Assembly (NCBI GenBank): GCA_027717985.1
Contig: JALLOO010000001.1
Coordinates: forward strand, 80,534 to 144,533
Origin: Patescibacteria group bacterium AH-259-L05
GTDB taxonomy: Bacteria > Patescibacteriota > Patescibacteriia > UBA2591 > UBA6264
Reading direction: 5' to 3'
DNA: 64,000 bases
Made by a program: the position numbers and the translations under genes. The notes under the pieces are model-generated. The model worked only from the letters and a program-made list of their open reading frames with translations. It was not told where the DNA came from and searched no databases. Positions 2,823-4,985 of this stretch are shown here, piece after piece. How positions within the stretch are numbered: the first letter of the stretch is position 1; every line of letters starts with the position of its first letter.

Positions 2823-4985
2823 ATGAAAACTGATAAAATTCGAAAAACATTTTTAGATTTTTTTAAGAGAAGGGGTCATGAAATTATTCCCTCATCTTCG
2901 TTAATTCCTGCTGATCCGACAGCATTATTTACTTCAGCAGGTATGCAGCAATTTGTGCCGTATTTGTCTGGTGAGGTTGAACCGCCCTATCGCCGTGCCG
3001 CAAGTGCGCAAAAGTGTTTTCGTACCTCTGATATTGATGAGGTAGGTGATGAATATCATCATACCTATTTTGAAATGCTTGGTAATTGGTCATTTGGTGA
3101 TTATTTTAAGACTGAGGCAATTCAATGGGCATTGGAATTATTGGTAAAAGAATATAAGTTACCACAGGATAAGCTTTGGGTGACTGTATTTTTAGGAGAA
3201 AGAGGCGTGTCCAAAGATACGGAAGCAGCAAAGCTGTGGGAGCAATTTGGCGTTGATAAGAAAAGAATTAAAGAGTTTGGTATGGAGGATAATTTTTGGG
3301 GGCCGGTTGGTTCAACCGGGCCATGCGGGCCATGTACTGAAATTCATTATGATCAAGGCAAAGATTTTCAAAAAGAAAAATGCTCTCTTAATGGATGCGG
3401 GCCGAATTGTAGTTGCGGGAGATTTGTTGAAGTATGGAATTTAGTATTTATGGAGTATCGCAAGACTCGTGAAGGTAAATATGAAAAATTACCTGCGCAA
3501 AACGTTGATACCGGCGCGGGATTAGAACGTCTCGCCGCAGTGCTTCAAAACAAATCATCAGATTATGAAACAGATTTATTTTTGCCCATAGTTAATACAA
3601 TTAAAGAGCTTTCGCCAATTTCTTTGTCATCTCCCCCTCTGTCTTCCCGAGCGACCCCTCCTTTGTCATCCCGAGCGACCCCTCCTTTGTCATCCCGAGC
3701 GACCCCTCCTTTGTCATCCCGAGCGACCCCTCCTTTGTCATCCCGAGCGACCCCTCCTTTGTCATCCCGAGCGACCCCTCCTTTGTCATCCCGAGCGACC
3801 CCTCCTTTGTCATCCCGAGCGACCCCTCCTTTGTCATCCCGAGCGACCCCTCCTCTGTCTTCCCGAGCGACCCCTCCTTTGTCATCCCGAGCGACCCCTC
3901 CTTTGTCATCCCGAGCGACCCCTCCTTTGTCATCCCGAGCGACCGAAGGGAGCGAGGGATCCCAACAAAATGAAAAAGCAGTTCGCGTTATTGCTGATCA
4001 TATGCGCGCCGTGTGTTTTTTAATTGCCGATGGCGTGATTCCTTCAAATGAAGATCGCGGATATATGCTTCGCCGGTTAATGCGAAGGGCGATGCGCTAT
4101 GCTCGCAGGCTTCATATGGGGAAAAATTTTTTAATCCCCATTTGCCAAGTGATCATTGATGTATATAAGGGGCAGTATCCCGAATTACAAAAAAAACAAA
4201 ATGATATTTTAACATTGGTGCAAAACGAAGAAGAAAAATTTATGAAAAGCCTGCGTGATGGATTGAAACGGTTTAGAGTATTAGTACAAGAGACAAAAAA
4301 TCAAGACGAGACTGTTTTAGATCCTCAAAAAACATTTCAACTCTATGATACGTATGGCTTCCCGATTGAATTAACCATTGAGATGGCGCAGGAAAAGGGA
4401 TTAACAGTGGATGAAGTTGGGTTTCAAAAAGAGTTTGAGCGTCATCGAAAAATATCACGCGCCGGCGCAGTGCATAAGTTTAGTGGTGTTGGTGAGTGGG
4501 GAGATAAGGTCGCGCCCCAGCACAGCGCTACCCATTTGCTCCATCAAGCATTGCGCGATGTACTAGGCGAGCATGTGCATCAAGATGGTTCTGATTTAAC
4601 GCCTGAGCGCCTGCGGTTTGATTTTACACACCCTAAGCCATTAACAAAGGAAGAGATTAAAGCAATTGAAGATTTGGTAAATAAGCAAATTGAGCGCGAT
4701 CTCATCGTGACGGTTGAAAAAAAGAAATTTGAAAATGCGGTTAAAGCTGGTGCGCTTGCTTTTTTTAGAGAGAAATATCCTAAAGAAGTGACCGTCTATA
4801 CTATGGGGGATTTTTCAAAAGAGGTATGTACCGGGCCGCATGTTAAACATACGAACCAAATTGGAAAATTTAAAATTGTAAAAGATGAAGCGCTTTCTGC
4901 AGGAGCGAGAAGGATTAGAGCAGTGGTTGAGGGGAGTACATATAAACCAAAAGGGATTTCAGTTTTTGATTCTAAAAGCATTTAA
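2823..4985 (+). CDS. alaS: Alanine--tRNA ligase, short form (no C-Ala domain), carrying a 13x8-aa repeat insertion
   Basis: [36 protein letters not shown], and the editing-domain motifs [11 protein letters not shown] and CTGPHV. 720 aa including about 114 aa encoded by the repeat. Confidence 0.93.
   Translation: [720 protein letters not shown]
3621..3962 (+). repeat. Family-A repeat: tandem array of 13 x 24 bp (CCCCTCCTTTGTCATCCCGAGCGA-type) plus terminal hairpin arm, in frame in alaS
   Basis: 3633-3944 is 13 phased 24-nt units translated as (PPLSSRAT)13. Two units carry the CTGTCTTCC variant. The 3945-3961 arm GAAGGGAGCGAGGGATC pairs with the last unit. Confidence 0.95.

Follow-up and report, generated by a model that had tools for sequence, protein, structure and literature searches.

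An in-frame array of hairpin arms in the alanyl-tRNA synthetase gene of a Patescibacteria bacterium

The alanyl-tRNA synthetase (AlaRS) gene, alaS, of Patescibacteria group bacterium AH-259-L05 (hereafter L05) contains a tandem array of thirteen 24-bp units that leaves its reading frame open. The gene lies in a 64,000-nt stretch of contig JALLOO010000001.1, termed here the window, to which coordinates refer unless a contig is named. The array was formed by local head-to-tail amplification of one half of a dispersed hairpin, the half bearing a TGTC tag, with breakpoints at the hairpin apex. It is probably selfish or slippage-derived DNA rather than a dedicated protein domain.

RESULTS

Thirteen hairpin arms are repeated in frame within alaS

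The initial annotation of this DNA described thirteen phased, in-frame 24-bp units at positions 3633–3944, translated as (PPLSSRAT)13 and including two variant units; all of this was borne out. The program TRF returned a single array at 3636–3944 with a period of 24, 12.9 copies, 97% matches and a score of 590, and a pattern search located thirteen arms of the form GTC[A/T]TCCCGAGCGA starting at 3641, 3665 and so on up to 3929, with an exact 24-nt spacing. Each unit (plus strand) consists of a C-rich leader followed by the 5′ arm of a hairpin, and the array is read in the frame of the open reading frame (ORF) 2823..4985(+). Tabulation of the units showed 11 of the 13 to be identical, units 1 and 10 being a CTGTCTTCC variant in which both substitutions (TTG>CTG and TCA>TCT) are synonymous; the eight units between these two form an identical run of 192 bp. 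The GC content of the array is 0.61, against ~0.38 in its surroundings. As had been pointed out, a unit of eight codons keeps the frame at any copy number.

The peptides SLSS and EGSEGS on either side of the array, which had been suspected of deriving from the same element, proved to be encoded by the two ends of the structure. On the left, positions 3621–3632 (plus strand) hold a truncated and degenerate first arm (a fourteenth), TCTTTGTCATCT, which resembles CCTTTGTCATCC, reads SLSS and marks the left insert junction. On the right, EGSEGS is encoded directly 3′ of the array (3945–3962) by the loop and 3′ arm of a hairpin whose 5′ arm is the last arm of the array. The alaS array can therefore be written as N × [C-rich leader + 5′ arm + loop start], capped by one complete hairpin. 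The opposite strand of the array carries an open 110-aa ORF, (MTKEGSLG)n (3601–3933, minus strand), with GGAGG 11 nt upstream of an ATG in each unit; it probably arises incidentally from the C-rich leader.

The insert occupies a short variable loop of AlaRS

The alaS product (2823..4985, plus strand) is an AlaRS of the 603-aa type found in Patescibacteria plus an insert of 117 aa, which adds ~19% to the length of the core and separates two core domains. The identical 720-aa protein is entered at NCBI for L05 as 'alanine--tRNA ligase-related protein'. In Pfam searches the tRNA-synt_2c match was split by the insert into two stretches, and a tRNA_SAD match was also present. The ORF is intact and all invariant AlaRS residues are kept. 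In comparison with the sister genome AH-259-L07 (hereafter L07), dN/dS was 0.23 for alaS, a value averaged over the time before the insertion too, and 0.17 for rpoC (dS 0.19–0.29).

Characterised AlaRS enzymes had been said to join the blocks flanking the array by a short variable loop. In solved bacterial structures the bridge amounts to ~6 residues (residues 264 to 384 of the L05 protein correspond to 260 to 267 of the chain in 9jc7). An alignment of orthologues, proposed earlier as a check, showed the segment to be absent elsewhere, with no equivalent domain at the site. The L07 enzyme (609 aa, 90% identical) is without the array, and so is that of a Logan-assembled relative (81% identical). 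In a further 55 AlaRS of Patescibacteria this position is taken by no more than a short loop, variable in length among orthologues, an example being ELSQISEKQEDSEKAVR. The nucleotide sequences show a clean empty site: it reads ...CTTTCGC|AGATAAGCGAAAAACAAGAG... in L07 and likewise ends in ...CTTTCGC in the 81% relative, and the window carries ~340 additional bases there.

An AlphaFold2 model was built from a 58-sequence alignment. The AlaRS core was predicted with pLDDT >90 on either side of the insert, while residues 270–376, between helices 254–263 and 375–402, were predicted to be coil with pLDDT ~30. Disorder or structure prediction had been named as a second check, and its outcome is thus an unstructured insert between intact core parts. 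The related proposal of a tolerated, expandable linker stands in that the insert preserves the frame, occupies a variable loop and is predicted to be disordered; no indication was found of a selected role as a linker.

Other AlaRS genes of Patescibacteria have inserts of their own. The 81% relative (protein P0003) has an 11-aa insert, SGLPAVASARA, at another site of the enzyme (contig L002, alaS ~1225–1260), originating from an unrelated GC-rich hairpin, CTGCCCGCC...GGGCGGGAG (GC 0.72, against 0.38 for the gene). Lineage-specific inserts were also seen in three further Patescibacteria AlaRS (P0039, P0097 and P0098).

The unit is one arm of a dispersed hairpin

The 17-mer core of the unit has 18 matches in the window, compared with 0.08 expected by chance, and the element was found at five loci, the alaS array and four others. 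It resembles a repetitive extragenic palindrome (REP) and is made up of a C-rich leader, an arm (TGTCATYCCGAGCGA), a mini-hairpin apex of the GNA type and a second arm (GAGCGAGGRATC), together with the TGTC tag. Five of the six reading frames through the arm are open. The initial annotation had treated the alaS repeats as a standalone array; the array is confirmed, but its unit is the amplified 5′ half of this palindrome, members of which were also found in other phyla (see below).

Two classes of hairpin can be distinguished. Class A, which includes the alaS terminus and copies at 15.1 and 18.1 kb, has the form ATYCC-GA-GC-GA-[short stem-loop]-GA-GC-GA-GGRAT, with two tandem G.A blocks. The complete hairpin that ends the alaS array, TTTGTC-ATCCC-GA-GC-GA-CCGAAGG-GA-GC-GA-GGGAT-CCC-AACAAA (3926–3971, plus strand), is of this class and is defined by fold and covariation; the imperfect hairpin with tandem G.A mismatches that had been noticed between the last unit and 3945–3961 folds as described. 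Its architecture recurs at 15142–15185 and 18129–18165. Class-A stems covary between copies, ATCCC/GGGAT being replaced by ATTCC/GGAAT and, in L07, by ATTGC/GCAAT. Class B, to which the rpoC and RodZ-like copies described below belong, comprises near-perfect to perfect hairpins (fold z about −5) with a stem, ATCCCGCGC/GCGCGGGAA, that is Watson–Crick paired except for one A.A mismatch in its ATCCC/GGGAA part.

The four remaining loci are all on the plus strand. Within rpoC, a near-perfect class-B palindrome specific to L05 is inserted in frame at 14325–14365 (fold z = −5.2). Between rpoC and ftsK (15110–15188), two 5′ arms with a 27-bp period precede a complete ATTCC/GGAAT hairpin. A gene for a RodZ-like helix-turn-helix protein contains in frame, at 17667–17790, four 18-bp arms, a perfect palindrome centred on GCGAAGC and one further arm; this copy was detected by TRF, its arms read PLSSR[P/S] and its fold z is −4.4. 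At the 3′ end of the same RodZ-like ORF (17406..18149), upstream of recA, a class-A hairpin (18120–18170) has displaced the ancestral stop codon, such that the C-terminus is now encoded by the element and the stop is provided by the hairpin loop (GACTGA). The arm arrays of the window, with periods of 18, 24 and 27 bp, each end in a full hairpin.

All copies lie within a plus-strand block of housekeeping genes (window 1–19200) and are co-oriented with the genes; alaS itself has a TrwB-like ATPase gene with a zinc finger and the genes for ScpA and ScpB as neighbours. The 45-kb minus-strand block (19260–64000) has no element copies, and the ORFs scanned in it, as far as 39.4 kb, make up a cluster for polysaccharide biosynthesis that includes epimerases, glycosyltransferases, Wzz and Wzy.

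All five loci differ between two sister genomes

The rpoB–recA region of L07 was reached via its RpoC. All five element loci of the window differ between L05 and L07. Besides alaS, the 17-aa insert in RpoC is present only in L05 and is found neither in L07 nor in another RpoC compared (P0123); the L07 RpoC has a TGTC-hairpin insert of its own at a different site (TPEVSSRASEGSQ; GTCATCCCGAGCGAGCGAGGGATC; contig L243, 11735–11775), read as VSSRASEGSQ in the SSRA frame. The copy between rpoC and ftsK is not in the L07 spacer. The copy upstream of recA is absent as well, the RodZ-like protein of L07 ending in EE*, followed by ...GAAGAGTAA and then the start of recA. At the internal site of the RodZ-like gene the two genomes have different nested elements, in frame in both. 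These differences arose within a dS of ~0.2–0.3. From the comparison of the two genomes it appears that hairpin elements are gained and remodelled fast in housekeeping genes of this lineage.

Three other observations were made in the course of this comparison. The L07 spacer between secY and adk (contig L001, 1925–2025) contains, in tandem, two 18-bp arms (GTCATTCCGTTCCCC), a class-B hairpin (GTCATTCCGCACTTCGTGCGGAATGGC) and a class-A hairpin; the composite cluster indicates that the two classes co-occur and have arm units in common. In rpoC of L05, a second and unrelated in-frame tandem duplication (12808–12894; 45 bp × 1.9, ERSEQQGSAKHGSYD read twice) is absent from the RpoC of L07 and P0123 and contains a mini-hairpin-like core, TGCGAAGCA. 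Finally, from scpB to a Mur ligase gene, L07 has ~5.9 kb of additional genes (DUF5678, aspartyl-protease-like and PPDK-like; L001, 13338–20332), the corresponding interval of the window (6215–6300) containing only a tRNA-Arg(CCG) gene.

Arm arrays and hairpins occur in other genomes

A two-arm pattern detected tandem arms on at least 120 metagenome contigs. Among the metagenome loci listed there were at least 140 arrays of 2–8 arms, with periods of 19–41 bp and a contig GC content of 0.33–0.71. They are composed of uniform units, TGTCATYCCGAGCGA plus a short and usually C/T-rich tail, with a complete hairpin as a cap (often GAGCGAAGCGAGGRATC); some loci have an inverted partner hairpin nearby. 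The tails are uniform inside an array and different between arrays, which argues for local amplification and not for repeated insertion. The point at which the unit and the terminal hairpin diverge, that is, the duplication breakpoint, was at most 4 nt from the hairpin centre in 62 of 77 arrays. The period was divisible by 3 in only 114 of 246 intervals, so many of these arrays must be non-coding. One coding example was found in an organism of GC 0.60 (contig L214, minus strand, ORF 1601–4813), where an in-frame array of four 21-bp arms with a terminal hairpin sits between FAD_binding_4 and FAD-oxidase_C of a bona fide FAD-linked oxidase/4Fe-4S protein. It is translated in a different frame from the alaS array (CHSER...).

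Since the 3′ arm was outside the pattern used for the metagenome search, the pairing of the two arms could be assessed without bias. In 77 metagenome hairpins the variable stem position was T-A in 25, C-G in 51, T.G in one and C.A in none (76 of 77 paired). Covariation was likewise seen in 60 of the 62 complete hairpins from viral contigs, for which selection was symmetric. Scans of viral contigs for tandem arms gave two matches for 5′ arms and three for 3′ arms; the latter three were rejected as arm arrays, being unrelated satellites.

A scan of contigs with CCGAGCGAN{5,12}GAGCGAGG lacked specificity: of the 120 loci listed, most were chance matches in high-GC genomes. Only ~6 true hairpins were present among the matches listed, so that the taxonomic spread is only sketched. 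True hairpins were also found in contigs of Acidobacteriota and Anaerolineae and in one intergenic spacer of L07. A protein search with the 119-aa insert peptide yielded no match, its own source protein included, presumably an effect of low-complexity filtering. A full-text literature search for the sequence strings of the element found no paper. Going by these matches, the hairpin family seems to be very widespread across phyla and is apparently unnamed.

DISCUSSION

Origin of the array

The following sequence of events probably accounts for the alaS array. A TGTC-tagged, REP-like palindrome would have settled in the surface loop of AlaRS that joins the aminoacylation core to the tRNA-recognition domain. 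Head-to-tail duplication would then have taken in the leader, the 5′ arm and roughly half the loop, with its breakpoint at the hairpin apex. The trigger may have been polymerase stalling at the very stable apex mini-hairpin of the GCGAAGC or CCGAAGG type, followed by re-pairing of the stalled nascent end on the C-rich leader through a CC or GC microhomology, which would yield the first duplication. Mini-hairpins of these two sequences melt near 76°C, withstand 7 M urea and pause polymerases (PMC13037366). Growth of the 24-bp unit to ~13 copies would have followed, through unequal exchange or slipped-strand mispairing, with one complete hairpin left at the 3′ end. Within genes, only arrays with an open frame and a period that is a multiple of 3 would be expected to survive. 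As the unit is eight codons long, has no stop in frame and is located in a loop, alaS remains open and the insert would be read as a disordered loop of ~117 aa rich in Pro, Ser and Arg.

The insert is most likely neutral, slippage-expanded selfish DNA, and the repeat peptide, if translated as the ORF predicts, is most likely a tolerated by-product. The latter judgement is based on its absence from close relatives, the near identity of the units in DNA, the predicted disorder and the existence of non-coding arrays elsewhere. Whether tandem amplification of the TGTC-side arm alone, breaking at a GNA mini-hairpin apex, amounts to a distinct, directional and so far undescribed mode of repeat genesis ('arm stutter'), operating on one near-identical hairpin family from GC-poor Patescibacteria to GC-rich soil bacteria and different from ordinary REP clustering, is more doubtful, and we put it forward as a tentative idea. 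If it were true, it would be a general and mechanistically specific source of protein-length innovation, able to build long disordered segments in essential genes (alaS, rpoC) within a dS of ~0.2.

Several observations weigh against a neutral, arm-derived origin. The nearest-neighbour folding of class-A hairpins is no better than that of shuffled sequences (z = −0.9); as these energies are not significant, it is covariation that carries the case for class A. The asymmetry between 5′ and 3′ arms is small in numbers, ~3 versus 0 arm-only arrays among the 62 viral-contig hairpins, and 2 versus 0 in addition. No transposase or RAYT gene was seen near the element copies in a Pfam scan of 23 window ORFs, which reached as far as 39.4 kb. 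Neither substitution in the variant units alters the peptide, and the L-S-S-R-A frame is used by all four copies internal to genes of L05 and L07; this might point to a degree of constraint on the peptide, as opposed to strict neutrality. Finally, copy number and array integrity rely on one assembly (the protein has one member sequence, from one contig), presumably a single-cell genome to judge from its naming style.

Alternative explanations

This last point bears on the most serious alternative, that the array or its length results from short-read mis-assembly or chimeric amplification and that the real gene has few copies or none. Besides the single source, the identical run between units 1 and 10 is longer than typical short reads, and no orthologue has the array. 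Such an artefact is nevertheless unlikely. Both junctions are specific and in frame, with a truncated arm at one end and a complete hairpin at the other, an architecture matched in more than 100 independent metagenome assemblies; the two variant units break up the array, and the other element copies on the contig are unremarkable. An artefact would need to have preserved by chance both the frame and a terminal hairpin typical of the family. A mis-estimated copy number is quite possible, but complete absence of the element from the alaS site is unlikely.

It might also be supposed that the insert is a selected appendage, a flexible linker or interaction module comparable to the appended domains of eukaryotic aminoacyl-tRNA synthetases (aaRS), with copy number tuning its function. 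The preserved frame, the synonymous substitutions, the shared L-S-S-R-A frame and the lineage-specific inserts at other sites of Patescibacteria AlaRS would all fit. This appears improbable given that the array is missing from a 90%-identical sister and from all other orthologues, that near-identical DNA units imply a very recent origin, and that this DNA also occurs outside coding sequence and with periods not divisible by 3. The insert is, moreover, without predicted structure, and the variant, GTCTTCCCG, is the complement of the class-B 3′ arm and can arise by exchange between elements.

A recently inactivated alaS, its function being supplied by another copy or by a host, is a very unlikely explanation. 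The NCBI product name and the split Pfam match could be read in this way, and Patescibacteria are thought to be symbionts. Against this, the ORF and the invariant residues are intact, the predicted fold is confident on both sides of an insert placed in a loop whose length differs from one orthologue to another, and the dN/dS ratio of alaS, even if it includes pre-insertion time, points in the same direction.

That the repeats form an RNA- or DNA-level array (guides of the TIGR or CRISPR kind, protein-binding sites or an antisense coding or regulatory unit) merely overlapping alaS is highly improbable, for although the hairpins have k-turn-like tandem G.A pairs, TIGR arrays are known from Patescibacteria, each antisense unit has GGAGG ahead of an ATG, and a weak C/D-box sR53 match occurs on the minus strand below threshold (15 bits against a gathering value of 49; E = 0.38), the units are identical and without variable spacers, their period is 24 and not 36 nt, the neighbouring genes (TrwB-like ATPase, ScpA) include neither a Nop-domain nor a Tas gene, the array has no Rfam match at threshold, and the array is wholly inside an essential ORF. 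In the window as a whole, tRNA-Arg was the only Rfam match at the gathering threshold, and permissive scans gave sub-threshold noise. An intein, an intron or programmed removal was rejected, since the insert consists of tandem repeat throughout and lacks both Hint motifs and motifs of the splice type.

Implications

Read as selfish, slippage-expanded DNA, the alaS insert shows how much repeat-derived sequence an essential and conserved enzyme can carry with its frame and predicted fold intact, and it extends to Patescibacteria the phenomenon of selfish DNA in coding genes that is familiar from Rickettsia. The reproducible anatomy of the half-element arrays offers a testable model for the birth of repeats, in which stalling at ultra-stable mini-hairpins would be the initiating step. 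On the practical side, such inserts split hidden Markov model matches (as reflected here in the 'related' of the NCBI name), create spurious antisense ORFs and gene calls, and are weak points for short-read assembly.

Comparison with known repeat systems

TIGR arrays have 36-nt units with two variable spacers and an adjacent Nop-domain Tas gene (Faure et al. 2025, PMC12045711). They resemble the present array in being built of short tandem units, known from the genomes of Patescibacteria and phages, and in having G.A motifs of the box C/D kind, but with its 24-nt units, 11 of 13 identical, no variable segment or spacer and no adjoining Tas gene, the alaS array was rejected as one of them. With in-frame variable-number tandem repeats and slipped-strand repeats it shares a unit that is a multiple of 3, near-identical copies and the expectation of slippage without frameshift. 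Proteins with such repeats typically act at the surface or in host interaction, whereas AlaRS is an essential enzyme of the cytosol, and the unit repeated in its gene comes from a dispersed palindrome.

The REP/REPIN-RAYT systems (Nunvar 2010; Bertels and Rainey 2011) likewise consist of abundant short hairpins located after genes, often as inverted doublets, as seen at several metagenome loci. The present element differs from them in that no copy is adjoined by GTAG, no RAYT was seen among the ORFs scanned, and there are in-frame intragenic copies and arrays of arms only.

Closer in behaviour are the Rickettsia palindromic elements (RPE; Ogata et al. 2000, Science 290:347; Ogata et al. 2002, Genome Res 12:808), selfish palindromes which also lie in frame in unrelated housekeeping genes, with presence or absence varying between close relatives as in alaS, rpoC and the RodZ-like gene, and which are translated as an extra surface peptide compatible with the fold. 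RPE-1, however, is inserted as a whole unit of ~100–150 bp, while the unit here is ~45 bp long and most of the insert consists of one arm amplified in tandem. The likeness is one of behaviour; the only link by sequence class is through the CGTC classification (PMC3733652).

The closest described system is the superfamily of CGTC/TGTC-tagged REPs (Di Nocera et al. 2013, BMC Genomics 14:522, PMC3733652), which includes dRS3 of Neisseria and RPE-4 and RPE-6 of Rickettsia. These are short palindromes, tagged at one end by an unpaired (C/T)GTC, with a stem of ~8–9 bp that opens with complementary A-T and T-A, a short C-rich tail and no linked transposase, found mostly in Alphaproteobacteria; some families have atypical loops, and head-to-tail arrangements are described as negligible (PMC3733652). 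In all window, metagenome and viral copies of our element, TGTC likewise stands directly 5′ of a stem that begins with AT, and the stem, ATYCCGAGC/GCGAGGRAT, has nine positions and starts with A-T and T-A. The tails (CCC, CTC or CTG) are similar but not identical to the consensus CCA. The element occupies five loci in the 64-kb window, and the Pfam scan of 23 window ORFs turned up no transposase. In contrast, the tag is also paired (GTC..GAC) in class-B copies, class-A stems have two tandem G.A/A.G blocks, and in place of a loop of 4–5 nt there is an apex of 3 nt (GAA, in GCGAAGC) or a stem-loop of 7–12 nt (CCGAAGG, GCCCAAAGGC). The host is a Patescibacterium and the family crosses phyla, and half-elements, consisting of the 5′ arm only, form head-to-tail arrays.

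Most CGTC REPs are at the 3′ ends of genes, but some are in frame, for instance in the genes for GlyRS-beta (26 aa) and IleRS (22 aa), and clusters can encode 43–82 aa (PMC3733652). The ~117-aa insert in AlaRS exceeds the largest reported. Because in-frame insertions of REPs and RPEs, aaRS genes included, have already been published (PMC3733652, PMC10969869), the alaS array is not by itself a new kind of event; it is an unusually large example, and a new variant, of a known phenomenon.

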